From Gemmata obscuriglobus (lineage in GTDB: Bacteria > Planctomycetota > Planctomycetia > Gemmatales > Gemmataceae), in contig NZ_CP042911.1 of the NCBI RefSeq assembly GCF_008065095.1, positions 3,000,001 through 3,032,000 of the forward strand: a DNA stretch of 32,000 nt, given 5' to 3'. A program made the translations under genes and the position numbers. Below the pieces are notes generated by a model, which saw nothing but the letters and a program-made list of their open reading frames with translations, made no database searches and was not told the origin of the DNA. Positions 2 through 22,862 of the stretch are shown here, piece by piece (position 1 is the first letter of the stretch; every line of letters begins with the position of its first letter).

Positions 2-1390
2 CACCCGTTCCCAAAAATTCACCGCGCCAGAAGTCCGGTTTACCTCTTCGACCCTGCGACGACGAGCAAGGCATGCGAGTGGCCGGTGGATGCTGGCATT
101 ACCCGCTACGGCCCGTACTCGAGCCGGGGGTTCACCCCGAATCGCCCGAAGGTGTGTGTCCTGTGCCACAAGGCCAAGAAGGGGCAGGTCGAACAGTTCC
201 TCGTGAAATTCAAAGACGGTGTTGCGGCAGGTGGAGATGGCATTCAGCCGTTTGAGCAGGGGTTTCTCGACAAGTACCACTTGGGCGGGATCGACTTCGA
301 GTTCTTCGTAACCGAAAACAACTCGGCTGCAGCGTACCGCAAAGCGGCCCGAAGCGCGATCTCGAGCCTCGGGCCGGGCGGGCAGAAGTGGGACATCTGC
401 TTCGTCCAAATCGAGGAGCGATTTCGGAACCTCCCGAACGCCGAGAACCCGTACCTCATCTGCAAATCCGAGCTGTTGACGCATCAAGTTCCGGTTCAGG
501 CGTTCACCGTCGAGACGATGGAGCTGTCCACCTACTCGATTCAGTTCGCTCTGAACAACTTGTCACTCGCTTGTTACGCGAAGATGAATGGGACACCGTG
601 GCTTCTGAAATCGGATCAGCCGCTCTTGCAAGAAATGGTGGTTGGCCTCGGTAGCGCTCGGATCGGCGACTCTCGGCTCGGTTCTGGGCAGCGGGTCGTG
701 GGAATCACGACCGTCTTCACCGGCGACGGGAATTACTGCCTTTCGAACCTGTCGCGGGCCGCCTTATTTGAAACCTACCAAGAGGAGTTGCTGGACACGC
801 TGCGTCTCGCGGTGCGACAGGTGCGTACGGATACCGGGTGGCAGCGTGCTCGCCCGGTCCGACTTGTGTTTCACGCCTTCAAGCCGTTTCGGGATGCCGA
901 GATCACGGCCGTGAAGGAAGTGATGCAGGAACTCGGCGAATTTAACGCCGAGTTCGCCTTCGTCCACGTCGTTGAGGATCACCCGTACCGGTTGTTCGAT
1001 CTGAACCAGCGAGGGAAGCTGGACAAGAAGACCCGCTCGACCAAAGGCGTCCTGGGTCCCAACCGGGGGCTCTTTATGCTCCTTTCCGAGCGCGAGGTGT
1101 TGCTTACCCTCACCGGGTTCAAGGAGGTGAAGCGGCCAGAAGACGGAGTTCCGCGACCGGTCTTGCTTCGCATCCACGAAGACTCGACCTTTACCGATCC
1201 GGTCTACTTGGCGCGTCAAGTGTACGCGTTCGCCGGACACTCCTGGCAGGGCTTCTTCCCGTGCGACATGCCGGTTACGATCGAGTATTCTGCGATGATC
1301 GCAAAGCTGCTCGGGAATCTCGCTACGCTGCCGGGGTGGAACCCCGCAGCGCTGATAGGAAACATCGGCTGGACGAGGTGGTTCTTGTGA
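2..1390 (+). CDS. Prokaryotic Argonaute, MID-PIWI region with slicer-dead PIWI; probably 5'-partial (alternative: GTG start at 86)
   Basis: The reading frame is open from nt 2 with no stop before the GTG at 86, so the gene may begin left of the window. The translation has PIWI/MID hallmarks: KMNGTPWLL, MVVGLGSARI, GITTVFTGDGNY, VRLVFHAFKPF, EREVLLTLTG, PVYLARQVYAFAGHSW. Where active Agos carry GxDV and RDG, this protein reads G-L-G-S and H-A-F, so the catalytic Asp residues are absent. Confidence 0.8.
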   Translation, partial: HPFPKIHRARSPVYLFDPATTSKACEWPVDAGITRYGPYSSRGFTPNRPKVCVLCHKAKKGQVEQFLVKFKDGVAAGGDGIQPFEQGFLDKYHLGGIDFEFFVTENNSAAAYRKAARSAISSLGPGGQKWDICFVQIEERFRNLPNAENPYLICKSELLTHQVPVQAFTVETMELSTYSIQFALNNLSLACYAKMNGTPWLLKSDQPLLQEMVVGLGSARIGDSRLGSGQRVVGITTVFTGDGNYCLSNLSRAALFETYQEELLDTLRLAVRQVRTDTGWQRARPVRLVFHAFKPFRDAEITAVKEVMQELGEFNAEFAFVHVVEDHPYRLFDLNQRGKLDKKTRSTKGVLGPNRGLFMLLSEREVLLTLTGFKEVKRPEDGVPRPVLLRIHEDSTFTDPVYLARQVYAFAGHSWQGFFPCDMPVTIEYSAMIAKLLGNLATLPGWNPAALIGNIGWTRWFL

Positions 1391-2706
1391 GCACCGGCCG
1401 CGAACGACTGCTTTCAGATTCTCGGGTTGCCCTAGAGCGGCAAATCCGGACCTCGGCGAACGTCGATTTCGCCGACCGTCTGTTCGCGGCCTGGCTGCTC
1501 GGTGTCGACAAATTTCCCTTCGACGACACGGTCGAACTTCAAACGCTCGTCGTCGAACGAACCCGAAGTTACCGCCAAGTGGCGGCACTTGGCTTCGCAG
1601 CGCTGCGAATGAGCCCCTCGTGCTCATTCCGAAGTGAACTCTGTGAAGCGCTCGTCTGGCTCAGCCAGCGCCCCATGACCATCGTCAACACGATGGCCGG
1701 GTTCGTCCTCGATCCGGTGGCCCTTCTGGGGATCGCGAGCGGAATCCGTTGCTGCGGAGATGCCAAAGTGGAGGAGCTTGCGTCCAATTGGATGCTGCGC
1801 GTTCTATCAGCACGTGCGAATCTGCCGATGGTTGCTCCGTGGGAGCAGTGCCTGATTGCCGCAGTGGGTTACCGGCTGCAGTTGCCGAACGCTTCAACCG
1901 TGCCCAGCGCGCCGAATATCGCCGATTGTCGACTCGCCCTTCGGGCACGCGGGGCCTTGCCACAAACGCACGTAGCCGACAGCCGCGCGGACGAGGCACA
2001 CCTTCTCCCGCTGCTCCTCGGTGACAGCGAGGAAGAGTTGGGATTCGCGCGTTCGGTCATCCGCGCGGCAGCATTCGATGTCCTTAAAAACGGAACCGTT
2101 GCCTCGGGCGTCGTCGGTGAGCCTAACCGCATCGAAAGCCGCGCAACGGCAGAGAAAGGAGCTGGACCTGTGAAGAAGGTATTCGTGAGCTATTCGTGGG
2201 ACACGGACGAGCACCAGCAGCGGGTTCGACAGCTGGTGGACGATCTGCGCGGTTACGGGTTCAACGCGACAATGGATCTTTATGAGCCCAACCCGCCAGA
2301 GGGGCTTCCCAAATGGATGATAAAGAACATTCGCGAATCCGATTACGTCTTGATGATTATTACGGAGACCTACCGTAAACGTTGCGAGGGCGAGGAGGAG
2401 CCGGGGAAAGGGAAAGGGGTGAAATGGGAAACGGGTCTGATGATTCGCCAGATTTACCAAAACGAATTCGTGAACGGAAAATTTCTCCCCGTAGTACTGA
2501 ACAAGTCCGATGTGGCGGCGATGCCTTCGGTATTCGCGGGCGATGTTTACTTCGACGTGTCGAAGCCGACAGAGCTTGAGCGGCTCGTGCGGCTCATGTC
2601 AGATCAGCCCGAATATGTTGCACCGCCGATCGGCCGTGTGCCGGTTCTTCCGCCTCGAAACAGCAGTAACGCAACAAAAGCTGAGCCCGAAAATAACGGG
2701 GGCTAA
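1387..2706 (+). CDS. pAgo-coupled protein: uncharacterised ~250-aa N-terminal domain plus C-terminal TIR/SEFIR-like domain
   Basis: The GTG at 1387 overlaps the pAgo stop (GTGA). GAGGTG at 1375-1380 sits at good SD spacing. From about nt 2173 the protein reads KKVFVSYSWDTDEHQQRVRQLVDDLRGYGFNATMDL...IRESDYVLMIITETYRKRCEGEE..GKGVKWETGLM...FLPVVL. That is the bacterial TIR/SEFIR-type pattern, including a W-E candidate catalytic Glu. I recognise no motif in the N-terminal part. Confidence 0.7.
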   Translation: MSTGRERLLSDSRVALERQIRTSANVDFADRLFAAWLLGVDKFPFDDTVELQTLVVERTRSYRQVAALGFAALRMSPSCSFRSELCEALVWLSQRPMTIVNTMAGFVLDPVALLGIASGIRCCGDAKVEELASNWMLRVLSARANLPMVAPWEQCLIAAVGYRLQLPNASTVPSAPNIADCRLALRARGALPQTHVADSRADEAHLLPLLLGDSEEELGFARSVIRAAAFDVLKNGTVASGVVGEPNRIESRATAEKGAGPVKKVFVSYSWDTDEHQQRVRQLVDDLRGYGFNATMDLYEPNPPEGLPKWMIKNIRESDYVLMIITETYRKRCEGEEEPGKGKGVKWETGLMIRQIYQNEFVNGKFLPVVLNKSDVAAMPSVFAGDVYFDVSKPTELERLVRLMSDQPEYVAPPIGRVPVLPPRNSSNATKAEPENNGG

Positions 2707-3877: not shown

Positions 3878-4375
3878 TCAAGCCTTCGCTTGGGTACAGT
3901 TGCCCCTCTGTCCGCACGCCCCGCATTTGGCTTTTGGTTGATCCACGGGGACCGGGCTCATCAGATGTCGCCGCTGCGCGCGGATCTTTGCCGCCGTCGC
4001 CAAGACCTCAGCCCGCAGGGCCTCCGTATTGGCCACCGTCACCCGGGAGCCGTCACCGAGGACGATCACCCCGTGAGGCGGACGTAGGCCATATTCCGCT
4101 TCGATCAGGATGAAGTACGTGCCGAGCTGAAGCCGGTGACCGTGGCTGACGCGTCGCGCCGATTTCCATTCCTCCGGAATGAGCGCATCGCCCTGCTTCA
4201 CGACGCGATCAGGCCGCCCCACCAGTCGATGCTTTGATGAAACAAGGGTGACGTTGTCCAGTGCGACTGTTTCGCCGGCCCCGAGCCCACGCACTCTTCG
4301 CCCCCAAGCCGCGAAGAGAAGCAACACGATACCGAGAAGCCCGATAGCAGCGGCGAGTAGAAACACAGGGTGCAT
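3878..4375 (-). CDS. Cas4-like PD-(D/E)XK nuclease core with N-terminal TM helix
   Basis: Motifs in order: TM helix HPVFLLAAAIGLLGIVLLLFAAW, then GRPDRVV (D), IPEEWK (ExK), QLGTYFILIE (QxxxY), and C-terminal CGACGQRGNC (Cx2Cx5C). The ATG at 4375 overlaps the stop of the upstream ORF (TGATG). Confidence 0.7.
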   Translation of the reverse strand: MHPVFLLAAAIGLLGIVLLLFAAWGRRVRGLGAGETVALDNVTLVSSKHRLVGRPDRVVKQGDALIPEEWKSARRVSHGHRLQLGTYFILIEAEYGLRPPHGVIVLGDGSRVTVANTEALRAEVLATAAKIRAQRRHLMSPVPVDQPKAKCGACGQRGNCTQAKA

Positions 4376-4632
4376 CAACCCGCTCCGCCAAGAACAAGGT
4401 AAAAGAGCGCCGCGACAATCAGCGCGATGGCGAGGAGCCAAACAGCGCGCGCCGCCGCGCGCCGAGAGGTCACTTCGAAAGCGGATCTATCCGCGTGCAG
4501 CGCTCGGCCGCTGGCAATCGCAGATTGGTTGCCGGGCTCGTCGCCGAGTGTCTCGAGCCGCCACGACTCGGGGCACCATGCCCAAGAGGCAATTTCGGAC
4601 GCCGACACGAAATCGTTACGTTCTGTGCCCAT
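4375..4632 (-). CDS. Small membrane protein carrying the N-terminal Cas4-type Cys motif (split partner of the downstream nuclease core)
   Basis: SASEIASWAWCPESWRL resembles the N-terminal Cas4/DUF83 motif that supplies the first Fe-S cysteine. It is followed by TM helix AVWLLAIALIVAALFYLVLGG. Its stop overlaps the next ATG by 1 nt. Confidence 0.5.
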   Translation of the reverse strand: MGTERNDFVSASEIASWAWCPESWRLETLGDEPGNQSAIASGRALHADRSAFEVTSRRAAARAVWLLAIALIVAALFYLVLGGAG

Positions 4633-6014: not shown

Positions 6015-7010
6015 TCACAGCCCTACCTTTGCTGCGACATTCTGCCTGAACAACGATCCGTCGCGAATGTACCTTCTCATGACCAGCAGCGACTTGTGTC
6101 CCGACTGGTCTTGGATATCGCGGTCGCTCGCCCCCGCTATGGCGGCCTGCGTGATGAGCCCTGCGCGAAGCGAGTGTGCGGCGTAACCCCGCGCGGTATG
6201 TCCCGCTGCGACCAAGCTGCGTTTGACGACCTCAGCCACCGTGCGGTCGGAGAGCCGCGTACCCATGACGTGCCCGTGCTTGTTTACAGAGCGAAAGAGG
6301 GGACCCTCGAGAATTGCTGCCTGATCGACCCACGCGAGCACCGCGCGCACCGGGCAGGTACCCTCGTGCTCACCGTACGGTATCCCGAGCGTCCGACCTT
6401 CCTGCACTTGGTCCGTTTTGCTCTTTCGGATCGTGACGACGAGCCCCTCGTCCGTGAGGGCCACATCAGTCGCGTCGATCCCGACAAGCTCGCTGCGCCG
6501 CATGGCGCCAGCGAACCCGAGTAGGAGGAGCGCGCGGTCGCGAACACCTAACAACCCTTGAGGCAGGTGCTCGACCATCTCGCGGATGTGCTTCGTGAGG
6601 GTGGGCTTCTTGTGATTTTGAGCAACACCTTTATCGCGCCGGATCCCTGCCCAGACCAACTTGACCTGTGCGGATTTCGTGGGCGAGTCGAAACCCGCCG
6701 TGCGGTGGGCATCGGAGATGGACATCAGGCGGCGTTGTAACGTACTCGTCTTCAATTCCTGGGAGCGGTCGGCCAAATAGTAGGCAACCGTGTCTGGCGC
6801 GGCCGGAAGCGGGGAGCGAGCGTACTTGGCGCACCAAGAGGAGAAATCCTTCCAATCCGAGCGTTGCGCGCGGCGAGTGTTCGGGGCTCTGGACTTCTCA
6901 ACGTACCTGTCGGCCTCACTGCCGATGTCTTCGAACCGCTCGGCGTGGTGTTTCGCCTCTTTCGGAGAAGAGGTTCGGGAGGCTTGCAAATTGGCTCGTT
7001 CGGGCGACAT
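6015..7010 (-). CDS. Tyrosine site-specific recombinase (Cre/XerD-like)
   Basis: N-terminal SAM-like core-binding region (TRRAQRSDWKDFSSWCAKY..PAAPDTVAYYLAD). Catalytic region with AMRRSEL (R), HSLRAG (HxxR) and GHKSLLVMRRYIR (H..Y). The start is ATG 7010 or GTG 7037. Confidence 0.85.
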   Translation of the reverse strand: MSPERANLQASRTSSPKEAKHHAERFEDIGSEADRYVEKSRAPNTRRAQRSDWKDFSSWCAKYARSPLPAAPDTVAYYLADRSQELKTSTLQRRLMSISDAHRTAGFDSPTKSAQVKLVWAGIRRDKGVAQNHKKPTLTKHIREMVEHLPQGLLGVRDRALLLLGFAGAMRRSELVGIDATDVALTDEGLVVTIRKSKTDQVQEGRTLGIPYGEHEGTCPVRAVLAWVDQAAILEGPLFRSVNKHGHVMGTRLSDRTVAEVVKRSLVAAGHTARGYAAHSLRAGLITQAAIAGASDRDIQDQSGHKSLLVMRRYIRDGSLFRQNVAAKVGL

Positions 7011-7183
7011 GGCGGGTGTAAACGTGAGCGTCAGCACTCAGTATCGCTCACAGCGGACCGGTTGCGAAACCCGAAATCGTTGCCGTCGCTGTCGCACAAC
7101 GGCTTAATGCGTTCTGGCTCAAGCAGCGCCGAGCCGCGAGCAAGGAAGGCTGGAACCAGGAGGTAACCGTTCACGTAGCTTGA

Positions 7184-7720: not shown

Positions 7721-7764
7721 TTCCGTTCGACTCGAGCTGGCACTTTTCCGGCCGTGTCAGTTCC

Positions 7765-8029
7765 TCAGGTCGAGGTGCGTGCAGGGATGATCGAGGGTGC
7801 CACCCCTCCGGTCCTGGCGGTCTGCATGGCCTCGGCCAGGAAGGCCAACACATCGCGGCCTTGTTGCCGGCAGGTCGCCACCACGGTCAGCATTCACTCG
7901 ACGAACCGGCTTCCACCGGCCGAGTCCGTCCCGAAACTCATCTTCCGCCAACATACGGCGTGCCGCAATGCCCGCTCGGCCGCATTGTTCGTCGGCTCGA
8001 CCCCTTCGACGGCAGCGAACGTGTACAGG
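7765..8029 (-). pseudogene. 3' fragment of a single-ORF IS66-family (ISBst12-like) transposase gene, with an additional in-frame TGA
   Basis: The minus-strand translation is LYTFAAVEGVEPTNNAAERALRHAVCWRKMSFGTDSAGGSRFVE*MLTVVATCRQQGRDVLAFLAEAMQTAR...ST*. This is the conserved IS66-family C-terminus. The internal TGA at 7894-7896 sits where homologues would have an Arg-type codon. The fragment continues the 5' half found at 18566-19676. The left IS end lies somewhere in 7721-7764 and is not resolved. Confidence 0.8.
8022..8029. repeat. Target-site duplication, left copy (TGTACAGG)
   Basis: Identical 8-mer at 18566-18573, directly abutting the opposite terminal inverted repeat. Confidence 0.85.
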
Positions 8030-8060
8030 GTACGCGCTCGGCGAATCACGTGCTTGACGG
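8030..8060. repeat. IRL of the IS66-type element
   Basis: GTACGCGCTCGGCGAATCACGTGCTTGACGG. Its reverse-complement partner is at 18535-18565. Confidence 0.8.
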
Positions 8061-8099
8061 GTAAGTTATGTTGGCGGCATCCGTTCCCTTCTTCGGAGG

Positions 8100-8450
8100 A
8101 TGCCCGTGTCCGACTCGTCCGCCCGGCCCCGCTACCACCCGGCCGCCGCCCGCCGCTGGGCCGACCGCCTCGAGCGCTACGCCGCCCGCCCCACGACGGT
8201 CGCCGCCTTCTGCGCCGCCGAGGGCGTGTCACCGTCCAACTTCTACCTGTGGCGGCGGAGGCTCACCGGGGCTGGTCTCGAACCGGCCGACGGCCCGGCC
8301 GTCGTGCCCATGCACGTCGCACCACCTCCTGCGCCCGCCGCCCCGATCGAGCTGGCCCTGCCGTCCGGCACGGTCGTTCGGCTCCCCGCCGACGCCGGCC
8401 CGGAACTGGTCGTGGCCATCCTGCGCGGGCTGGAGGGGCGGCCGTGCTGA
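8100..8450 (+). CDS. tnpA: IS66 Orf1 (TnpA, HTH protein)
   Basis: FCAAEGVSPSNFYLWRRRL motif. Its stop overlaps the tnpB GTG. Confidence 0.8.
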   Translation: MPVSDSSARPRYHPAAARRWADRLERYAARPTTVAAFCAAEGVSPSNFYLWRRRLTGAGLEPADGPAVVPMHVAPPPAPAAPIELALPSGTVVRLPADAGPELVVAILRGLEGRPC

Positions 8451-8806
8451 CCCTGCCCGCCACCACCAAGCTCTGGTTCGCGGCCGCCGTGGATTTGCGG
8501 CTCGGGTACGACGGGCTGGCCAACCTGGTCCGCACCCAGCTGTCCGGCGATCCGCTGAGCGGCCACCTGTTCGTGTTCACGAATCGGTCCGCGAACCGGG
8601 TCAAGGTGCTGTACTGGGGCGGCCACGGGCTGTGCCTCTGGTGCCAGCGGTTGGAGGCCGGGCGGTACCACTTCCCTGAAGCCACCGCCACCGGGATCGA
8701 ACTGACGGCGGCTCAGTTCGCCATGATCCTGGACGGCATCGACCTGTCCCGCGTCCGCCGGTTCAAGCGGTTCTCCGCCGCCCCGCCGCCACCTCGCGCT
8801 ACCTGA
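8444..8806 (+). CDS. tnpB: IS66 Orf2 (TnpB)
   Basis: GTG start. The sequence (M)LTLPATTKLWFAAAVDLRLGYDGLANLVRTQLSGDPLSGHLFVFTNRSANRVKVLYWGGHGLCLWCQRLEAGRYHFP is the conserved IS66 Orf2 pattern. Confidence 0.85.
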   Translation: MLTLPATTKLWFAAAVDLRLGYDGLANLVRTQLSGDPLSGHLFVFTNRSANRVKVLYWGGHGLCLWCQRLEAGRYHFPEATATGIELTAAQFAMILDGIDLSRVRRFKRFSAAPPPPRAT

Positions 8807-8831
8807 CGGCGGCCGCGGGGTTGAAGGGGGC

Positions 8832-10396
8832 ATGGACGCCACCACGCTCGCCCCCGATGCGCCGCTGCCGGACGACGTGCCCACGCTCCAGGCGATGGTT
8901 CGTGAGTTGCTCACCGAACTCCAGAAGCTCCGGGCCGAGAACGCCGAACTGAAGACCAAACTCGACGCCGCCCTGAAGCACCGGTTCGGCCGCCGGAGCG
9001 AACGCCGGACGCCACCGCCGGTGCCCGCCGCCCAGAAGCCACCCCGACGCGATGAGCACGGTCGCTCGCCCTTGCCCGAGCACCTCGAACGGCGGGAGGT
9101 CGTCCACGACCTGACCGCGGCCGAGAAGCTCTGCCCGTGCTGCGGCCGGCCCCGCGCGTGCATCGGAGAGTAGACGGCCGAGCAACTCGATCTCGAACCG
9201 GCCACGTTCTTCGTCCTCCGCACGGTCAAGAAGAGCTACGCCTGCCGCCACTGCGACCCGGCGGCGGTGCCGGCCGAGCAGCGCATCACGACCGCCGGTC
9301 CGGCCCAGGTCGGCCCGATCGCCAAGGGGTTGTGCGGTCCGGGGCTGCTGACCCACGCCGTCACCGCCAAGTTCGCCGACCACACGCCGGTCCATCGACT
9401 CGCCGGCCAACTGGGCCGGTCCGGGTGACGATCGCGACCTCGACGCTGGGCGACTGGCTGTTCCGGGCGTCTGAGTTGCTGACCCCGCTGTACGAGTTGA
9501 TGCACGCGCGAGTGCTCCGGTCGCGGGTGATTCATGGGGACGACACGGGCGTGAAGTTGCGGGTGCCGGGGAGCCATCGCACGGCCAAGGCGTACATCGG
9601 GGACGCCGACCACCCGTACGTCCTGTTTGACTTCACGACCGACTACACGGCCGACGGGCCGAAGCAGTTCCTCGCGGGCTACAAGGGCTACTTGCAGGCG
9701 GACGCACTGGCCCAGTACGAGGGGTTGTACGGCGAGCGCAAGGTCCAGCACGTGTGCTGCGTCGCGCACGCCCGCCGCAAGTTCGTGGCCGCACACGACA
9801 CTGGTGACGAGCGGGCGGCCCAGGCTTTGGGGTTGTTCGGCCGGTTGTACGCGATCGAGCGGGCGCTGCCACCGCTGCTGCCGCCGTCGGACGACCCGGC
9901 AGTTCGGGAACTTCGACGGCATCGCGAAGAGCAACGCCGGGCGCTGCGGGGGCGTGACGCCGAACCGGTGTGGGATGAACTGTCGAAGTGGCTGACCGAG
10001 CAGAAGCCGGGTGCGCTGCCGAAGTCGCCGCTGGGAACCGCGATCGGGTACGCCACGAACAACTGGGGGGCGTTGAAGCGATACCTCGAACAAGGCTTCC
10101 TGGCGCTGGACAACAACCTCAGCGAGAGAACGCTCCGGGCAATCGCACTCGGACGGAACAACTGGGGCGTGTTTGGCAGTGCGGGAGGCGGGCGGACGGC
10201 GGCGGTGCTGTTCTCGGTCATCGGCACGTGCAAGCATCTGGGGCTCGATCCGTTCGCGTACCTGCGGGAGGCGCTGCCGGGGGTGTTCGCGCCAGGCGAG
10301 AATCAGACGACCGAACGACTAATGGACGGGCTACCGGACCGATGGCTGTTGAATCGAACACGGGACCAAACCGCCCCGGATGCGGCCACCCGGTAA
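8832..10396 (+). pseudogene. tnpC: IS66 transposase (TnpC) disrupted by an in-frame TAG and a 1-nt deletion
   Basis: The leucine-zipper N-terminus and CPCCG zinc motif are followed by TAG at 9171-9173 (..ACIGE*TAEQLDLEP..). The frame is then lost at the G-run 9423-9425 (..LGRSG* / VTIATSTLGDW continues in the next frame). The downstream part keeps the DDE-region motifs (HGDDTGVKL, LQADALAQY, LALDNNLSERTLR). Confidence 0.85.
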
Positions 10397-10420
10397 ACCT
10401 CGGCACCTCCCACGCTTCAA

Positions 10421-10465
10421 ACCCGCCGGTCCAAGGCCGGCGGGTCGCACTCCGTGCGTAACTAC
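10421..10465. repeat. Internal, diverged IRR-like copy at the end of the IS66 core
   Basis: Alignable to 18529-18565: shared ACCCGCC.GTC.A.GG and the G.GCGTA.C tip, with indels. The match to IRL is poorer than that of the distal copy. Confidence 0.5.
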
Positions 10466-10658
10466 CTCAGGGATACGACATCCGAACAGTTCGATATTCA
10501 GCCGACCGGGCGGACACATTCTGGCGCGTCAAGCGGGAGGACAACGCCGCCAGAGCACCGGTTCCGAGAAGGACGACGACCGACGGGGCAGCCCCGGCGG
10601 GGCGTCGGCTACCATGCCGCCCCCGCCCGACCTGAAGTTGCTTCGGACCCAACTCGGT

Positions 10659-11747
10659 TTACCAGTGCGGGGCGGCCAAGGCGTTCATCAACCGGAGCGA
10701 GAACGGTCGGGCCTGCTTCGACGCACGCGCGGGCATCTTTTCCGGCGTGGGCGTGGGCGTGGGCGTGGGGGCTGGCGGAGGCGCCCCGCAGTTGCTGCTC
10801 GGCGGGGACGAAGGCGGCGGGTTCGGGCGGTTCCCGCTCGCCGTCACCAGGGTGGCCAACCCGGCCACGATCAACGCCCCGGCCGCGATCGACTGCCAGG
10901 TCAACGGCTCACCCAACAAGACGCAGCCGAGCATCATCGCGATGATGGGGATGACCCAGGTGTGCGACATGAACACCGGGGTCGGCAGGCGCTTAAGGGC
11001 GACCATGTACGCCCCGAACCCGAGGACCGAGCTGACCGCCGTCAGGTACCCCCAGGCCGCCCAAGCCGGGGCCGTCGGTGCCGGGAGCGGTTCGCCGGCG
11101 GCGGCCGCAGCGACCGCGAGCGGGATGGCGCCCGCGATCATCTGCCAGCCGATGACGGTCCACAGGGCGTCCTTGTTCACCCGGTACTTGACCGTCAGGG
11201 CACCCGCGGCGTAGCACGCGGGGCCGAGCACCAGGGCCGCGAGGTTGGTCAGGCCCGCATCGACCGTGACGCCGGCGGGCAGGACCAGCACGCCCACGCC
11301 CACCGCCCCGAGGGTCATGCCGAGCAGACCGCGGGAACTCGGCCGCCGGTGCGCGATGACGGCTTCGAGGCCGGTCACGATGATCGGCCCGAGGCCGAAG
11401 AAGAGCGACACGAGCCCGGAGCCGGCCGAGCGGGACGCCAGCGTCGCCAGCCCCGTCCCGCCGCCGCAGAGCAGCAGCCCGGCGGCCGCGAGCGGCAGGA
11501 TTTGCTGGCGGGCGGGCATCACCGGCCGGCCCAGCGCCCGCAGGACGAGGAGCACCGCGGTCCCGGCGGCCGCGAATCGCGACGCGGCCATGGTGAAGGG
11601 CGGCCAGCCGCCGTGCGGGCCAACGGCGACCCGCATCGCGAGGAACGTCGTACCGGTGATGACACACAGGGCCACGAAGCAGGCCATGCCGAGCGGGCTC
11701 AGGCGCGCCCACCACGGGGCCGCTTGAGGGCGGGAGTTGTTCGTCAT
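10659..11747 (-). CDS. EamA/DMT-superfamily transporter with Pro/Thr-rich C-terminal tail
   Basis: ATG at 11747 is preceded by GGAGGTG. The protein has ten-helix-type hydrophobicity and an EamA-like repeat. The tail reads PAPTPTPTPTPEK. Confidence 0.8.
   Translation of the reverse strand: MTNNSRPQAAPWWARLSPLGMACFVALCVITGTTFLAMRVAVGPHGGWPPFTMAASRFAAAGTAVLLVLRALGRPVMPARQQILPLAAAGLLLCGGGTGLATLASRSAGSGLVSLFFGLGPIIVTGLEAVIAHRRPSSRGLLGMTLGAVGVGVLVLPAGVTVDAGLTNLAALVLGPACYAAGALTVKYRVNKDALWTVIGWQMIAGAIPLAVAAAAAGEPLPAPTAPAWAAWGYLTAVSSVLGFGAYMVALKRLPTPVFMSHTWVIPIIAMMLGCVLLGEPLTWQSIAAGALIVAGLATLVTASGNRPNPPPSSPPSSNCGAPPPAPTPTPTPTPEKMPARASKQARPFSLRLMNALAAPHW
10744..10767. repeat. (GGCGTG)x4 tandem hexanucleotide repeat inside the transporter tail
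   Basis: Four perfect units read directly in the sequence. On the minus strand they encode the (PT)n stretch. Confidence 0.9.
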
Positions 11748-11917
11748 TGTCACCTCCGCGAGGGTAGGAACCAACCGGCTTTCGATGCTGGCCGGCTGCA
11801 CCTCTCTAACGGACTTAGTCCTCGTCGGTGTTTCAAGTATTTGCATTCAAAAACCACACGGCCTTGGCGAATGGTACGCCAAGGCCGTGTGGTTTCGTTA
11901 GGTCGAACGGGTCTGAA

Positions 11918-13150
11918 TCACTCCGCGTTCGCGTAGTACAGTGGGCGGGTGCGGTTCTTGCGCTCGTCGCGGAATCCGAACAGCTTCAGCCCGTGGTACC
12001 GCCCCTCGAGGTCGAACAGAGGCCCGTACACCAGCTCGCCGCCCTCCTTGCGCGCGACCTGCCCGTTCGAGTGCATCGGCAGCAGGTACGGGCGGGCGTA
12101 AGAGTTCGACGGGGCCAGCGCCAGTCGCGGCTCACCGGGCTTGGCGTGCACCGAAGCGCGGATGTACAGATCGGTGCCGACGGCCTCGCGCACGACCCGT
12201 TCGACCAGCCCGAGGTCGCGCACGGCGTGGTTGTTCGCGGTGTACCCGACCGAGAGGTCGGCCGCCAGGAACCACAGGTCCTCGGCGTCCTTCGCCGCGA
12301 TGCTGCCGACTTGGTGCCCGCCGACGGCCCCGAACACCTGGACGGTGTGCTCGTAGGACCAGCCGCGGGCGCGGAGGTTGACGCTCGACACCAGGCTGTC
12401 CGCCTGAGACGCCAGCTGAGCCCGGAAGTCTTCGTTGCTGTTCGCCTGCTCGCGCACGTTGACGATCTCGTCGATAACGAACTCAAACCACCGGTCGTCG
12501 AGCACGTTGCGCGGAGACGCCAGCACGACGTCGAGCGCGCCGAGGAACGCCCGCGCGTCGTCTTGCAGGGTCTCCAGGAACAGGTCGGCCTGGCGGGCGT
12601 CCAACCCCGCGTCCGCCGAGTGCAGGTGCCCGTCAGCGACGAGCACGAGCCGGGTCGGCACGTCGGTCACCTCGGTCAGAGCGTCGGCGACCCCCTGGAG
12701 CACGTTGACGGACGTCCAGTCTGCGAGGTCGGGGGTGAGCGTACGGCCCGTCTTCAGCTCGTTCCCGATCTTGACGCCGCCGGTGATCATGGCCACGGTG
12801 AACTGCTTGTGGCTCAGCATCCCGTTGATCTTGTCGAGCAACCCGGTGCGGACGCCCAGATCGTCGAACAGGGTCGCTTTCACGCTCAGCGACGCGGCCT
12901 TGAGGACGGCCAGGGCGTTCTCCGCCGGGCTCAGGTCGGGCTTGCACTTTTTCAGGAGTTCGTCCTTCCAGTGCTCGCGCCCCTGGCGCAGTTCCAGGGT
13001 GAGGGACTGCAGGGCGTCCGGGGTCAGGACCGTCATCGGCGGCGGCGGGAAGGTGCGCCCTGCCTCGATCTGTTTGCACGCCTCCGGGAGGATGGACAGC
13101 TTGTCGAGGCGGGAGGCGTCGGACAGGGCGGACCGGAAGGGCTGGGCCAT
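11918..13150 (-). CDS. Hypothetical enzyme, tentatively DIT1/PvcA-like (isonitrile synthase family)
   Basis: Soluble 410-aa ORF. TPDLADW...PTRLVLVADGHLHSADAGLD and ...LYIRASVHAKPGEPRLALAP....LLPMHSNGQV resemble the PvcA patterns (pDlgEe..., ivSDGrvF.d, iRLSIH...K..i.l...tPWH). The call rests on recalled motifs only. Confidence 0.35.
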   Translation of the reverse strand: MAQPFRSALSDASRLDKLSILPEACKQIEAGRTFPPPPMTVLTPDALQSLTLELRQGREHWKDELLKKCKPDLSPAENALAVLKAASLSVKATLFDDLGVRTGLLDKINGMLSHKQFTVAMITGGVKIGNELKTGRTLTPDLADWTSVNVLQGVADALTEVTDVPTRLVLVADGHLHSADAGLDARQADLFLETLQDDARAFLGALDVVLASPRNVLDDRWFEFVIDEIVNVREQANSNEDFRAQLASQADSLVSSVNLRARGWSYEHTVQVFGAVGGHQVGSIAAKDAEDLWFLAADLSVGYTANNHAVRDLGLVERVVREAVGTDLYIRASVHAKPGEPRLALAPSNSYARPYLLPMHSNGQVARKEGGELVYGPLFDLEGRYHGLKLFGFRDERKNRTRPLYYANAE

Positions 13151-15894: not shown

Positions 15895-18507
15895 ATGAAC
15901 TCGCACACCGACTCGCCGAACCAATCGGGTGAGAGTCACGAGGAAACCGACCAGTCGGCGCCTGACGAGGTCAGTACTCCGCCGTTTACTTTGCAACTTC
16001 GGCTCGCGCGGCAGGCACTCGCGAACAATAATCCAGAGGCCGCGCTCTGTTTCCTCTATCCGGTGTTTGGCCTCAAACCTCACTCGTTTCACCTCCGGCG
16101 TCCGTTCCTCCCGTCCCCATCCAACTTCTCGTCGAAGATCACGGAGGTTGTGCCGGAAGCCAGCGCACTTTTGTTGGTGGCGGCAGCGCAGACCGGCCAG
16201 ATTCGTGATGCCCTTGCGGTCGCGATGGCGGCAAACGGGCTGGTGCAGACCGTCAACGGCAACCACAAGGTCTTTTCGAGTGCGAGTGACTGGCTCGAGG
16301 TTTTGGAGAAAGTAAGCGACCTTAACCTGCAACGGGGAACCGCGGCTCGGCTTGCTCGCTGGGCGCGAGAAGGGGTTCGCGTTCTTCGCGAACTTAGCGG
16401 GGCTGAATTGATTGAGGACGTCGTCGGTCGGGACACTTTGAACGAGTGGTTCGAACAACCGCATCTCTTGATCGATCAACCTGCCAACGCCGAGGCACTC
16501 GCCGAATACTTGGCGGGCGAGCCGGTAACAGACCGGGAGATCGCCACGCTCGACATCGACGCCTTCATGCACGCGATTGAGCATCGTGATGGCTCTATCC
16601 CCGAAGGTGCGGTCGCCATCGCAATTGGACTGGCTCACGGCCTCAAAGCCCGCTCGTCTGAGGCACAGATTCCGGCGTTCATCAAGGGCGTGTTCGGCAA
16701 GGCCGTTACCGGCTCTTTCCTCGCGGAGCTCGAACGTCGGCGCGTTCAACCGGAACGCGCCGTGGAACTCGCGCTCTTCGCCCTCGAACACGACCAGGGG
16801 CTGACCGACGCGGGCCGGGCCGAGTTAACCGGGCGAGTGGTCGAACGTCTGGCCCAGCTTCCGCCGACTGCCCGCAAGTACCGCGAGCGGTTGCTCGGCC
16901 AGGCCGTTGAGTGGGCGCTCACGAACCAGGCCAGCGGGCATAGTCGGGAGAACTGGCCTGTGGTCGTGCTGTGCTTGGACCGCTTCCCCGGACCGCCCGC
17001 GCCGCGCGAGGCGTCCCCCGTCGTTGAGCTCGAGCGGGGTTCGGCTCCTATTACCGGACCAACGGACGAGGTCGGGGCGGACGTCTTGGCGGCTGGCGAA
17101 TCGGACGGGGCGCCCGGCCTGACGGTTTCGGCGGCCGGGGAAGAGGAACCGAGGGCCGTGGGCGCCTTTTCGTACGACGAGCTGAGCTCGGCCGCCCTGG
17201 AAGCTGAGCGTGCGGACGAGACGCTTCCGCGCCGCGGTGCGCTCGAGAACACGCCCCGGCTGCCAGGCGATGGCCACCGCACTCTGGGCGAAGTGGTTGA
17301 CCAAAGTGACCCTCGCCTCGCCTCGCTGCTCGGCCGCTATCCCGGTGACCCGGAGCGACCCGTCGTCTTGCTCGGTTTTCAGCCCGTCGGCCAACGCCTG
17401 CTCGTCTACACCGTCGAAGCGTCGGAAGGGAACCCACTTCGCTGGCGAGCGCGAGCTCTTGATGGCGCCGTGGACACGATCCAACGCGCCGTCGAAACCT
17501 TCGACGGCTCAATCGCGCGGGCCTGGCAGGATCATAAGCGCGCCGAGGTGCCCGACCGGAGCCGCGCGCTGGCCGACTCACTGCTCCACGAACTCGGCGC
17601 GCATCTCGCCGAGGTTGATGACCTGCTCAGCGCGGCGGTGTCCGACCTGTTGGCCGCCCACGATCCCGAGCCCAACATCCTGCTCACCGCCGCCGGCGCG
17701 GCCCAAGCCCTCCCGCTTGATTTGTTGACCGTCCGGTTGGCCGGCGGTTCGGAGCGGCCGCTCGTGCACTGCGGGAGCACCGTTCGTTGGACACCGGGGC
17801 TGGTGCTTCAGGAGCGAATGGACACCACCGGCAGGCGGTCGGGTGAGGGGACCGGCCGCTCGCTGGGGTGGCTCGCGTACCTGCCCGAACACGACCCAAA
17901 CGGTCGGTTCGGCGGCTTCTTCAGAGAGAAGGAGGTCGAGAGCGAAAAGGATCGCTGGTCGCCCGGGGCGAAGTTCCTCCAGCGAACGAAGGGCCGTGGG
18001 TGCCAAGGGACGCAGGCGACCGCAGGGAATCTGCGGTCGTATTCGGCTGGTCAGTTCAGCGACCTTCTCGTGTTGGCCCACGGCTGCTGGGACCGAGGCG
18101 CGGTCGTGCTTTGGGATGAGTTGGTGGATTCCCTTGGGGCGGCCCAGTTGGACACGTTGTTCCTGGTCTCGTGCACGATAGGCCGACTCGGGTGGTCAGG
18201 TGCTGACGAGCCGATCAGTCACAGCTTGTTGTCCAACATTCTCGAGCAGGGGTCGGTCTCGCACCTGCTAGCCTTCCGCCACACGATTCCCGATACACCG
18301 GCGGTAAAGTTCGCTCTCCGAGTGCGCGAAGATACGGGTCGCGATCTGGCGCTCGCGCGGAGCGAGTTGTTAAAGTCTTGGTTCCCAAATGGGAGCGCGG
18401 CAACGAATGTTTGCCACCAACACCAAGTGAACACAGGTGATGCGTTCGAACGTTTCGTTGGTGCGGTCTCGATTGCGTACTCGGCAAAACTGGAACCGGT
18501 CCGGTGA
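15895..18507 (+). CDS. Large CHAT-domain (caspase-like) protease with ~560-aa helical N-terminal region
   Basis: The C-terminal ~300 aa show the CHAT pattern: ILLTAAGAAQALPLDLL, the His in LLVLAHGCW (codon 18079-18081) and the Cys in LFLVSCTIG (codon 18172-18174), then GSVSHLLAFRHTIPD. ATG at 15895, with an alternative GTG at 15874. Confidence 0.75.
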   Translation: MNSHTDSPNQSGESHEETDQSAPDEVSTPPFTLQLRLARQALANNNPEAALCFLYPVFGLKPHSFHLRRPFLPSPSNFSSKITEVVPEASALLLVAAAQTGQIRDALAVAMAANGLVQTVNGNHKVFSSASDWLEVLEKVSDLNLQRGTAARLARWAREGVRVLRELSGAELIEDVVGRDTLNEWFEQPHLLIDQPANAEALAEYLAGEPVTDREIATLDIDAFMHAIEHRDGSIPEGAVAIAIGLAHGLKARSSEAQIPAFIKGVFGKAVTGSFLAELERRRVQPERAVELALFALEHDQGLTDAGRAELTGRVVERLAQLPPTARKYRERLLGQAVEWALTNQASGHSRENWPVVVLCLDRFPGPPAPREASPVVELERGSAPITGPTDEVGADVLAAGESDGAPGLTVSAAGEEEPRAVGAFSYDELSSAALEAERADETLPRRGALENTPRLPGDGHRTLGEVVDQSDPRLASLLGRYPGDPERPVVLLGFQPVGQRLLVYTVEASEGNPLRWRARALDGAVDTIQRAVETFDGSIARAWQDHKRAEVPDRSRALADSLLHELGAHLAEVDDLLSAAVSDLLAAHDPEPNILLTAAGAAQALPLDLLTVRLAGGSERPLVHCGSTVRWTPGLVLQERMDTTGRRSGEGTGRSLGWLAYLPEHDPNGRFGGFFREKEVESEKDRWSPGAKFLQRTKGRGCQGTQATAGNLRSYSAGQFSDLLVLAHGCWDRGAVVLWDELVDSLGAAQLDTLFLVSCTIGRLGWSGADEPISHSLLSNILEQGSVSHLLAFRHTIPDTPAVKFALRVREDTGRDLALARSELLKSWFPNGSAATNVCHQHQVNTGDAFERFVGAVSIAYSAKLEPVR

Positions 18508-18534
18508 GGCCCATTCGCTGGTGAAGGTACCCGC

Positions 18535-18565
18535 CCGTCGAGGGTGTGATTCACCGGGCGCGTAC
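18535..18565. repeat. Distal IRR of the IS66-type transposition unit
   Basis: CCGTCGAGGGTGTGATTCACCGGGCGCGTAC. Its reverse complement matches IRL at 25 of 31 positions. It is followed immediately by the TSD copy. Confidence 0.8.
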
Positions 18566-18573
18566 TGTACAGG
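18566..18573. repeat. Target-site duplication, right copy (TGTACAGG)
   Basis: Identical to 8022-8029. Confidence 0.85.
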
Positions 18574-19676
18574 GCCGGTTCGACGGCCATCAACTCGCGG
18601 CACACGCCCGCCGTGATCGCGCACGCGCCTTCAGCCCCTCGCTTGAGGAAGCCCCGCACCCCGGCCCGGAGCCACCCGAGGTAGGTCTGTCGGAACCCGC
18701 GCCGCGTCAGCGTCCCGTCCCGCACCCGCTTCCACTGGTCGAGCAGGATGTCGGCGTAGGTCAACAGGTCCTCGCCGACCCCCGACCCGCCGTTCCCCCG
18801 GTCGATCATGGCCTGGAAGTCTCGTCGGAGGTGCGCCCAGCAGACTTGGCGCTCGCACACAGGGAGGTGGTCGTAGGCCGAGTATCGGTCCGTGGTCAGC
18901 ACTCCGGGATGGCCCGCGATCAACTCGCCCAGCACCTTCCGGGCACGGGACAGGCGGACCAGGAACACGGTCACGCGGGCGGTCACCGCGGCCCACAGCC
19001 AGCCCCGCTTGCGCCCCTCCGGCCACCCGGTCTCGTCCACGTTCGCGGGCTTCCCAACGACGTAGGCACGGGCCTCCTCAACGACCGGCCCCAAGGCGAC
19101 CGCGGCCTTCCGCTGGAGGCCGCATACGGCGGCCGGGCTGATCGGTACCCCGGACAGGTCCTGGCACAGCCGCGCGACGCCCCGCTTGCCGATCCGGTAC
19201 GCCCCGCTGAGGAGCGCGCACACCGCCTGGACCCGCGGCCCGTACCCGCCTCGGGCATCACCCGGTAGGGGCGGGCGGTTGATACGCCCGCAGTTCGGGC
19301 ACGCGAGCCGGTGCCGACGATATTCGGTCACCTGCGGGCAAACCGGCGGTAACTCGATGATCTGGTGGCGGAGCGGTTGCGCATCACCCCCGGAGAGCGC
19401 GTGTGCGCACCGGTCACAGGTGCTCGGCCGCAACTCGATGACGTTGTCCGCGGGCAGGTCGGAACGGGAGTGCTTAGGGTGCCCCGGCTGGCCGCCCTTG
19501 CGCCTGCTGGATGGGGCCTTCGGCGGGGCGGCCTTGACGTGCGGCGGGTCGGACGACGGGGGCTTTGAGGAGTTCGTCGAGTTCTGCCCGAGCCGGGCTT
19601 CGAGGTAACGGATGTATGCCTGCACCGCCGGGGGAAGCGCGTCGAAGACCTCAGGTGGTAGCGTTGGAGATGCCAT
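18566..19676 (-). pseudogene. 5' fragment of the same single-ORF IS66-family (ISBst12-like) transposase gene
   Basis: MASPTLPPEVFDALPPAVQAYIRYLEARL..NSSKPPSSDPP..RRKGGQPGHPKH..CDRCAHAL..ACPNCGR..ANVDETGW..LTTDRYSAY..VCWAHLRRDF..CRELMAVEPALY, where homology stops at the insertion point. The rest of the 498-aa track ORF is read-through into the IRR and the antisense strand of the CHAT gene. The right IS end is approximately 19700-19730 and is not resolved. Confidence 0.8.
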
Positions 19677-19750
19677 GCCGCAGAAGGAATACGGAGCAAG
19701 ACTCACAGCGGCCACAACCGTGAACGCCTACACCAGGAGATAAATAGCTG

Positions 19751-20074: not shown

Positions 20075-21475
20075 CTAGCGGATTACCCTGGCCACCGCAT
20101 CCAGTGCCTCTTCTGGTACGAAGAGACGATCCGTCTCTGGCAAGGGCTGGGAAAGTGTTCTGAAGCTGTCATCGTCCCGAATAGGGGCCGCCCCTCCTGA
20201 GTCATCTACAAAATAACCCCATTCGCTCGGCGCCTTCGATAACAATGAAAACTTCGGGTGGTCCCGGACGAGATAAGATTCTGGCTCCTTGAAGCCACTA
20301 TCGATAAGCGCCTTGTTGATCTTCGGATACGCCTCGGGTGATTTCAGAAAACTACTAATCTGTTCAGAAGATCGCGGAACAGATTTGAATAAGGTGCGGG
20401 TTCGTATCCTCTTGGCGAGATCGACCACGATGGGATCCGCTCCATCAGCCTGAGCCACAATTTCGACAAGCACGTGCAAGGCGAAGTCATCAGCGGACAA
20501 CAGGGCTTGAAGTGTCACCACTTTGCCGGCGACCATGTCCATCAAAGGCCCAACGATTCGGTCGCGAGAGAAAGCCGCGAATTGTCCGTCGCGCACGACG
20601 GTTTTTAAGCGGCGCAGAAAGAGCGCCACCATCCCCTCCGCCGCCCTGACGGTGCGGTGGTAGTACACGGCTTCGTACATGGCACGTCGTGCCACCAAAA
20701 AATGCTCGACCACGCGTCTCGATTTGGCCCGATCGAATCCCACGACAAGTGTCTTTTCGTTTGTTGTCCCCAGTGCGCACGTCGAGATCAACCGACTGAG
20801 GTCATATCCCCCAAACGTAACGCCGCACTGCTGGCTGTCACGGCGAAGGAAATCGCTGCGGTCGACGTCGATATCGCTATCCAGTAGTCGCGGCAGGTAG
20901 GGCAGGTGATACTCGCCAAGCAAAAATGCACCGATCCGTTCAGCCATCCCGCGCTCGTAAGATTCGAGCATTTGGTGCAGTTCGCCCTCGGGCCAAGCGA
21001 GCAGAGCCTGTCCCACGAGAACGTGCCACTTCAGCCTGCGCCCTCCCACGGCGCCTGCTGCGGCTGGAAGCCCGAGCCCCTGTCTCCAATTACCCTCGTC
21101 GTAGTCCTCACCAATGATCTCGCGCTCCCATGCGTGCGAGAGGGGCCCGTGCCCGAGGTCGTGAAACAGCGCCGCGAGTGCGAAGTCCCTGATCGCCACC
21201 TCGTCGGGGAGCAGAAACGGTGTGATCGAGTCGCGCCCTACTTCTTGAATGTGCCTGCCAAAGAGTACCGCGAGGTAGGCAGCGCCGATTGAATGAACGA
21301 GTCGAGAGTGCTCGCCGCCGGGGAACACTAGATGCACAAGCCCGAGCTGGCGGATGTGGCGGAGCCTCTGAATTTCGCGGGTACGAAGCACCTCCACGAT
21401 GAGCGTCTCCATGCCCCTAAATTCCATGAGGCCGTGGACACTGTCTTGGATACGCCTTACACGACTCGACCGCAT
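20075..21475 (-). CDS. SAMHD1-like HD-domain phosphohydrolase (dNTP triphosphohydrolase-like, COG1078 type)
   Basis: IQDSVHGLMEF...REIQRLRHIRQLGL..FPGGEHSRLVHSIGAAYLA...ALFHDLGHGPLSH...LDSDIDVDRSDFLRRDSQQCGV. The H..HD..D metal ligands are all present. Confidence 0.8.
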   Translation of the reverse strand: MRSSRVRRIQDSVHGLMEFRGMETLIVEVLRTREIQRLRHIRQLGLVHLVFPGGEHSRLVHSIGAAYLAVLFGRHIQEVGRDSITPFLLPDEVAIRDFALAALFHDLGHGPLSHAWEREIIGEDYDEGNWRQGLGLPAAAGAVGGRRLKWHVLVGQALLAWPEGELHQMLESYERGMAERIGAFLLGEYHLPYLPRLLDSDIDVDRSDFLRRDSQQCGVTFGGYDLSRLISTCALGTTNEKTLVVGFDRAKSRRVVEHFLVARRAMYEAVYYHRTVRAAEGMVALFLRRLKTVVRDGQFAAFSRDRIVGPLMDMVAGKVVTLQALLSADDFALHVLVEIVAQADGADPIVVDLAKRIRTRTLFKSVPRSSEQISSFLKSPEAYPKINKALIDSGFKEPESYLVRDHPKFSLLSKAPSEWGYFVDDSGGAAPIRDDDSFRTLSQPLPETDRLFVPEEALDAVARVIR

Positions 21476-21478
21476 AGC

Positions 21479-22807: not shown

Positions 22808-22853
22808 TTTATGCTGCCCTGTGGTGAAGCTGCTACGTTGGTTGCTGCCAGTC

Positions 22854-22862
22854 GTCACGAGA
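22854..22862. repeat. Target-site duplication, left copy (GTCACGAGA)
   Basis: Identical 9-mer at 24596-24604, each abutting a terminal IR. Confidence 0.85.

Follow-up and report, generated by a model that had tools for sequence, protein, structure and literature searches.

A predicted BPAN-type long-B Argonaute module with a SEFIR effector, interrupted by an insertion sequence in Gemmata obscuriglobus

Introduction

Which kind of Argonaute system is encoded at the left end of the window analysed here, what might its effector do, and is it intact in its host? The window comprises 32,000 nucleotides of the Gemmata obscuriglobus genome (assembly GCF_008065095.1, contig NZ_CP042911.1, positions 3,000,001 to 3,032,000 of the forward strand), and it opens with the 3' part of a prokaryotic Argonaute (pAgo) gene, followed by a gene for a partner protein with a TIR/SEFIR-like C-terminus. 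An initial annotation had described the pair as a slicer-dead Argonaute coupled to a TIR/SEFIR-like protein, in a gene and domain order opposite to that of SPARTA. This framing is misleading, as a pAgo upstream of its effector is the normal long-B operon and the partner belongs to the bAgaN family: the module is a domain-swap variant of BPAN, and not an inverted SPARTA.

In the case of long-B pAgos, the arrangement with the pAgo gene upstream and the effector gene downstream has been described as the standard operon (Song 2023). The partners listed in that study are nuclease, Sir2, membrane and VirE proteins; SEFIR and TIR are not among them, and its supplementary files make no mention of Gemmata or SEFIR. 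Makarova 2009 described the PTH_0722 family, composed of a helical N-domain and a PD-(D/E)XK nuclease and linked to full-size pAgos, and recorded in one sentence a swap to SEFIR in the G. obscuriglobus protein GobsU_24486. As the window partner matches WP_010044795.1 of G. obscuriglobus exactly, it is probably the product of this same gene. The initial view of the arrangement as uncharacterised thus stands with regard to experimental work and falls with regard to the swap, which was already on record in 2009.

Results

Class and active site of the Argonaute

Of a long-B pAgo gene the window contains two-thirds, the 3' part, whose stop codon is overlapped by an intact effector gene. The Argonaute frame (positions 2 to 1390, forward strand; 462 codons and the TGA at 1388-1390) is still open where the window begins and encodes the end of L2, MID and PIWI. 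Its long-B class, in the sense of Ryazansky 2018, was assigned from profile and PDB sequence scores. In addition to a Pfam Piwi match (5.5e-11), the PADLOC model pAgo_II PDLC02379 aligns with it at 2.4e-191 (model positions 289-724 of 724), and the best PDB match is EcAgo (23wq, 2.7e-112), followed by RsAgo (5e-87), AfAgo (1e-13) and AaAgo (0.008), so that long-B models and structures score far above the other PADLOC pAgo models. By these scores the Argonaute is identified as a long-B and not a short pAgo, a possibility that the initial annotation had raised and that agrees with the length of its relatives (772-870 aa).

The equivalents of the catalytic DEDX tetrad in EcAgo are G492/E532/Q568/D700 (EcBPAN paper), and a family alignment maps these positions in the window pAgo to G217 (650-652), E257 (770-772), A292 (875-877) and A431 (1292-1294). 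The degenerate PIWI tetrad (650 to 1294, forward strand) thus reads G/E/A/A, with three of the four catalytic residues missing and the glutamate finger E257 as the sole survivor. The protein is therefore predicted to be slicer-dead, as had been proposed from the absence of catalytic Asp residues in the motifs VVGLGSA and VFHAFKPF, both of which are found in the frame. The YK-type MID pocket for the 5'-phosphate of the guide (452 to 583, forward strand) is intact, with Y151 (452-454), K155 (464-466), Q166 (497-499) and K194 (581-583) aligned with the EcAgo pocket residues Y426/K430/Q441/K469 (PMC13535254), and the C-terminal WFL is also kept.

The N-terminal domain of the partner

The effector gene (1387 to 2706, forward strand) encodes the 439-residue protein deposited under the accession given above as 'SEFIR domain protein'. 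A Pfam scan gives no match in its N-terminal region of ~250 aa, in agreement with the initial annotation, which recognised no motif there; the domain is nevertheless a known one. Residues 1-240 (1387 to 2106, forward strand) form an all-alpha domain, a homologue of the N-domain by which bAgaN docks onto its Argonaute. The PADLOC model PDLC02411 (Aga_Helical-REase) matches the whole partner at 7e-91 (model positions 2-377 of 378), and a second Aga_Helical-REase model, PDLC02404, matches residues 10-236 alone (1e-21). When a profile built from the first 240 residues of nine members of the family was searched against 1.84 billion representative proteins, 244 clusters were obtained; a Pfam scan finds the REase_DpnII-MboI domain in 64 of the 98 longer family members, all of which are matched by the Aga_Helical-REase models. 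With a profile of this wider family set, residues 74-389 of EcbAgaN (23wq) are matched at 4e-71; when the profile is restricted to the N-domains, the match narrows to residues 74-194 and is still 4e-7 in a PDB-sized search.

The correspondence extends to the element that docks EcbAgaN onto its Argonaute. [quoted passage not shown] R95, P96, A104, F106 and D109, in and around this loop, are invariant in the family alignment, and the AlphaFold2 (AF2) models show a small hairpin with short strands at 97-98 and 101-102. The N-domain of the partner is, on these grounds, predicted to be the Argonaute-docking domain of bAgaN, and the whole partner to be a bAgaN-family protein in which the PD-(D/E)XK nuclease has been replaced by SEFIR; the DpnII-MboI nuclease domain gives no match in the window partner by Pfam scan. 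Between the two domains lies a linker of low confidence (~residues 241-260; 2107 to 2166, forward strand), with a predicted local distance difference test score (pLDDT) <50 for residues 238-260 and a gapped, poorly conserved alignment. A neighbour-joining tree of the N-domains is star-like, and the number of SEFIR-for-nuclease replacements is not readable from it.

The model PDLC02411 carries the name 'Aga_Helical-REase', yet it aligns end to end with a protein (window 1387-2703) that ends in SEFIR and not in a restriction endonuclease. As the model spans the SEFIR C-terminus, automated annotation would mislabel the effector.

The fold of the N-domain also bears on the relationship with SPARTA, since the pair could be read as a SPARTA-like short pAgo system in which genes and domains have changed places and the N-domain of the partner is a divergent APAZ. 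The effector fold is indeed TIR-like and SPARTA TIR-APAZ chains are present among the weak Foldseek matches (ranks 22, 32 and 33), but these matches span only ~150 residues of the TIR-like domain. The N-domain alone is modelled by AF2 as all-alpha with high confidence (pLDDT 88.9; predicted template modelling score 0.89), and the Foldseek matches of this model reach no E-value under 0.09 in the PDB and include neither APAZ nor SPARTA chains. The Foldseek library used ends in April 2026 and the EcBPAN entry 23wq was not among its matches, so that the likeness to EcbAgaN lies outside its reach. APAZ-type PADLOC models give no match to the partner. An APAZ-like N-domain, considered as a candidate here and as a plain APAZ in the initial annotation, was ruled out by the confident all-alpha model without APAZ or SPARTA fold match. 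Together with the PADLOC scores and the length of the relatives, which include N and PAZ*, the fold of the N-domain refutes the SPARTA-like reading, and we give it next to no credence.

The SEFIR domain

In the C-terminal part of the partner, the SEFIR domain occupies residues 261-405 of 439 (2167 to 2601, forward strand). Pfam assigns residues 263-400 to SEFIR (2.6e-14) and TIR_2 (5.5e-13), the PADLOC bSEFIR model matches at 1.5e-47, and the top Foldseek matches of the C-terminus are the bacterial SEFIR 5y8e, then Act1 and then TIR domains, all of which bears out the TIR/SEFIR-like fold that had been noticed at first. Two acidic residues are conserved across the prokaryotic SEFIRs aligned. 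D297 (2275-2277) would, by alignment to BcSEFIR, be the equivalent of the published bSEFIR residue D40, and E348 (2428-2430), the putative catalytic Glu, lies in the GKGKGVKWE loop at a position that is Glu in every prokaryotic SEFIR aligned and Ile in the human adaptor Act1.

SEFIR is an established NAD+ (nicotinamide adenine dinucleotide)-depleting defence domain, and a bacterial SEFIR has been reported to turn NAD+ into ADP-ribose (ADPR) and nicotinamide. The architecture could be as described here and the SEFIR domain still not deplete NAD+, acting instead as an oligomerisation scaffold, as a producer of a signalling nucleotide to which a separate effector responds, or on another substrate. 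Eukaryotic SEFIR domains (IL-17R/Act1) are non-enzymatic adaptors; the bSEFIR mutation D40A, which abolishes defence, sits according to a preprint at the SEFIR-SEFIR interface and not at a proven active site; and the putative active-site loop of the partner is poorly modelled. We nevertheless regard this alternative as improbable in view of the reported bacterial activity, the close fit of the partner to the bSEFIR model and the retention, in all prokaryotic sequences aligned, of the Glu that is missing from Act1. Moreover, the conserved unit stops at two genes, and the related loci show no additional conserved gene as a candidate downstream effector.

Gene junction and synteny

At the gene junction (1375 to 1390, forward strand), a Shine-Dalgarno-like GAGGTG (1375-1380) stands six bases before the partner start GTG at 1387, which shares the 4-bp overlap GTGA with the pAgo stop at 1388-1390, exactly as first annotated. 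The bases GAGGTGG also code for the conserved Argonaute C-terminus (T/S)RWFL, so that a Shine-Dalgarno role is not the only possible reason for their conservation, coding and ribosome binding being inseparable here. The arrangement recurs among homologues: in 9 of the 9 related loci examined, the pAgo gene lies upstream and the partner gene directly downstream, with a 4-bp (A/G)TGA overlap. The pAgos of related loci match the pAgo_II model end to end and EcAgo residues 4-731, and they have the length given above, save on contig L002 (375 aa).

About 23 full-length homologues of the partner were found at 90% clustering, in 4-5 of the 244 N-domain clusters. The named genomes with the pair all belong to the Planctomycetota, namely Zavarzinella formosa, Gemmataceae metagenome-assembled genomes (MAGs), a Candidatus Kuenenia MAG and the Tundrisphaera plasmid pTA3_3. 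This 52-kb plasmid of Tundrisphaera sp. TA3 contains two pAgo/SEFIR-partner pairs with identical match statistics. A search of a plasmid database returned stand-alone SEFIR proteins only and not the full-length partner.

Interruption of the pAgo gene

Both G. obscuriglobus assemblies annotate the Piwi gene at only 518 aa, with a DDE transposase gene just upstream on the opposite strand. The open pAgo frame runs 261 nt to the left of the window, where it meets an insertion sequence (IS), and when intact relatives are used as tblastn queries, the 230 N-terminal residues that are lacking turn up in the same frame, 1.07 kb farther upstream. The N-terminal region that the initial annotation thought might lie to the left is thus present, beyond an IS of 1069 bp with a DDE_5/DDE_Tnp_1 transposase (L015:5286-6354 in CP025958.1, window coordinates -1328 to -260), which splits the gene at about codon 230, in the PAZ* region according to the EcAgo domain limits. 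The terminal inverted repeats of the element read TAGGACTTACG(T/C)AGTTG and the direct duplication is the 5-bp CCAAC. Deleting the IS together with one CCAAC copy in silico gives an intact open reading frame (ORF) of 777 aa, which aligns without gaps, at 88% identity, to a 786-aa Gemmataceae Argonaute. A 4-bp CTAG duplication was also considered as the target site, and excision on it left the frame unrestored. The disruption of the pAgo gene by the IS and its repair in silico are new findings. A full-length N-L1-PAZ*-L2-MID-PIWI protein in one intact gene is hence a matter of ancestry and not of the present genome.

The pAgo fragments on either side of the IS show no other damage, with no further frameshifts or stop codons, which suggests a recent insertion; the G. 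obscuriglobus copy is probably a recently inactivated system. The same intactness would fit a system that works despite the IS, either with a pseudo-short L2-MID-PIWI protein (518 aa) or with an Argonaute split into N-L1-PAZ* and MID-PIWI. The gap-free alignment of the repaired ORF is in line with this, as are the effector gene, which is intact and keeps all family-invariant residues, the location of the EcAgo contacts to the effector in MID and PIWI, and the precedent of a functional natural split Argonaute, AfAgo with its N-L1-L2 protein (PMC10954474). However, a recent insertion would explain just as well why there is no further decay. In addition, the fragments lie 1.07 kb apart with an oppositely oriented transposase gene between them, so that the downstream fragment has lost its native promoter and start, and such a split is seen in no other intact relative. 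We therefore consider a working system in G. obscuriglobus unlikely and favour its recent inactivation.

On contig L002 (758-3989), the SEFIR partner P0023 lies behind the pAgo truncated to 375 aa, beside IS91-family (Y2_Tnp) genes, and on another contig a partner protein identical to P0023 is encoded behind a 773-aa pAgo that is intact. After G. obscuriglobus, L002 is the second case in which the pAgo is disrupted and the effector retained.

The N-domain in other effectors

The bAgaN-type N-domain is also found fused to a CAP12-type TIR, PNP_UDP_1, patatin, CHAT, DUF2272 and a nuclease-EAD1-trypsin combination, and among the matches listed ~26 of the 150 representatives have other C-termini without an assigned domain. 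Four of the variant types (PNP, patatin, TIR and CHAT) were followed at five loci, and in each a long pAgo gene immediately precedes the effector gene. As far as they are visible, the Argonautes are 51-54% (PNP-linked) and 44% (patatin-linked) identical to the window pAgo, and the genes upstream of the TIR and CHAT variants encode Piwi proteins of 779 aa and 783 aa. The presence of one N-domain on such varied effectors behind long pAgos suggests a modular long-B adaptor. The fusions to TIR, PNP, patatin and CHAT, which are new here, contradict a 2026 statement that the N-domain is nuclease-specific.

Two further arrangements were observed in this family. At L017:4001-6532, the gene for the helical-adaptor effector with a CAP12-type TIR has behind it a second CAP12-PCTIR_TIR gene, separate from the first, and P0106 is an 810-aa fusion of the helical domain, REase, EAD1 and trypsin.

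Genomic context

An AbiEii/AbiEi toxin-antitoxin (abortive infection) pair (L015:2372-3880) precedes the start of the split pAgo gene by ~0.7 kb, and its proximity is consistent with a defence island. Within the window, a tyrosine recombinase and at least two IS66-family elements (TnpB_IS66 and DDE_Tnp_IS66) are found at 6015-7037 (reverse strand), 7754-10396 (forward) and 18219-19715 (reverse), and the GC content is ~70% at 8000-13000 against ~60% around the pAgo pair. Recombinase, IS66 elements and GC contrast suggest a mobile or island context, and the AbiE pair, the integrase and the IS elements together point to a defence or mobile island.

A Cas4-like PD-(D/E)XK nuclease gene at window 3878-4632 (reverse strand) is apparently split between two frames, the ORF 4375-4632 corresponding to Cas4d model positions 3-67 and the ORF 3878-4441 to positions 55-182; it could be a frameshifted pseudogene or the result of a sequencing error. 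This gene, 1.2 kb downstream of the pair, was considered as a third component of the module and rejected: its orientation is opposite to that of the pair, it comes only after an EamA transporter gene, its coding sequence is spread over two frames, and the Zavarzinella locus lacks it. Further downstream (20075-23257, reverse strand), an HD-domain protein adjoins a 592-aa Ser/Thr protein kinase, whose kinase domain matches the PADLOC defence models mad6 and PD-T4-6; these matches may reflect the generic kinase fold only.

Discussion

In this study, we have described at one locus the domain identities of an Argonaute and its effector, which are homologous to EcAgo and EcbAgaN, together with a PIWI domain that has lost its catalytic tetrad, a retained guide pocket, a conserved operon and the conserved Asp and Glu of the SEFIR domain. 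The explanation that best accounts for the whole, and which we hold to be likely, is a BPAN-type module with SEFIR in the place of the nuclease, acting in intact copies by guide-dependent NAD+ depletion.

EcBPAN offers a template for how such a module might work. There, RNA-guided EcAgo binds target DNA and only then recruits an auto-inhibited EcbAgaN dimer through the N-domain loop, and in the resulting 8:8 complex the C-terminal domains oligomerise and become active. From this template we infer the type of guide and target, the recruitment, the oligomerisation and the NADase output, that is, every step beyond domain identity. In intact copies, such as those of Zavarzinella formosa or the Tundrisphaera plasmid, the slicer-dead pAgo would load 5'-phosphorylated small RNA guides and, once loaded, bind complementary invader DNA. 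Only the target-bound pAgo would then recruit the effector, otherwise auto-inhibited, through the loop of its N-domain; higher-order assembly may bring the SEFIR domains together, and the assembled SEFIR would switch on NAD+ hydrolysis, leading to arrest or death of the cell (abortive infection).

Several points weigh against this explanation. The homology of the SEFIR-type N-domain to EcbAgaN is, at the level of sequence, transitive, running through the wider family: searches by phmmer or with a profile restricted to the SEFIR-type family return SEFIR structures only, with no match to EcbAgaN, and the direct hhalign comparison is weak (E 0.024), though in the same register. As for the interfaces, the window pAgo keeps three (Y318, R321 and F323) of the seven positions at which EcAgo touches EcbAgaN and differs at four (S524N, R552D, N554G and D559R), as it does at all three residues of the EcAgo dimer interface (D400P, R552D and H726W); the 8:8 geometry of EcBPAN therefore need not hold, and the stoichiometry may differ. 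On the side of the effector, the putative catalytic role of E348 is read from conservation only, and AF2 models the putative active-site loop with pLDDT <50 (residues 336-351). Finally, the interrupted pAgo gene means that a module working in G. obscuriglobus itself gets no support, and the searched literature yielded no experimental work on a long-B pAgo paired with a SEFIR or TIR effector.

A comparison with characterised systems places the predicted BPAN-type module among them. BPAN (E. coli EcBPAN, PDB 23wq; Song 2023, Liu 2026) is likewise a two-gene operon with a slicer-dead long-B pAgo upstream, and its effector shares the alpha-helical N-terminal docking domain, with a loop of equal length and position. 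The two differ in that bAgaN ends in a PD-(D/E)XK nuclease and the window partner in SEFIR, with NAD+ depletion as the predicted output instead of the collateral DNA degradation of BPAN, and in that the Ago-Ago dimer contacts of EcAgo are not conserved in the window pAgo. RsAgo of Rhodobacter sphaeroides belongs to the same clade and shares the degenerate PIWI motifs GxG and FHA and the RWFL C-terminus, but its downstream gene encodes a predicted nuclease, and it has been studied mostly alone. With regard to the predicted output, the closest functional analogue is BPAS, in which a long-B pAgo is paired with the NADase effector bAgaS; the effector fold, unlike SEFIR, is that of Sir2, and bAgaS is without the bAgaN N-domain (Liu 2026).

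The likeness to SPARTA resides in an Argonaute-triggered effector of the STIR superfamily and in the expected logic of an NADase that depends on oligomerisation. The short pAgo, the APAZ adaptor, the N-terminal TIR and the upstream effector gene of SPARTA are all absent from the window module. The SEFIR domain itself is closely related to that of the single-gene system bSEFIR (Millman 2022), and the GKGxGVxWE loop, the Asp and the Glu are common to both. In bSEFIR, however, the SEFIR domain is N-terminal, is followed by a C-terminal region of its own and acts without an Argonaute, whereas in the window module it is C-terminal to an Argonaute adaptor within a two-gene operon.

The significance of the SEFIR pair is tempered by the fact that the swap was recorded in 2009, probably for this same gene, and that PADLOC already detects the pair, under the misleading name 'REase'. 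What reaches further is its place in a family. We lean towards the view that the bAgaN N-domain is a general, swappable adaptor of long-B pAgos, functionally the counterpart of the APAZ of short pAgo systems, which would serve at least six effector chemistries (PD-(D/E)XK nuclease, SEFIR, CAP12-type TIR, PNP-family nucleosidase, patatin phospholipase and CHAT protease) through one mechanism of docking and oligomerisation. If this is true, the SEFIR pair in the window is one instance of an adaptor family, and the question it raises is whether a single Argonaute-docking module may activate chemically unrelated effectors by induced oligomerisation. TIR-like NADases generally require assembly for their activity, and the SEFIR effector is for this reason a good test case, for which, given the disruption of the window copy by the IS, an intact homologue is the one to study.

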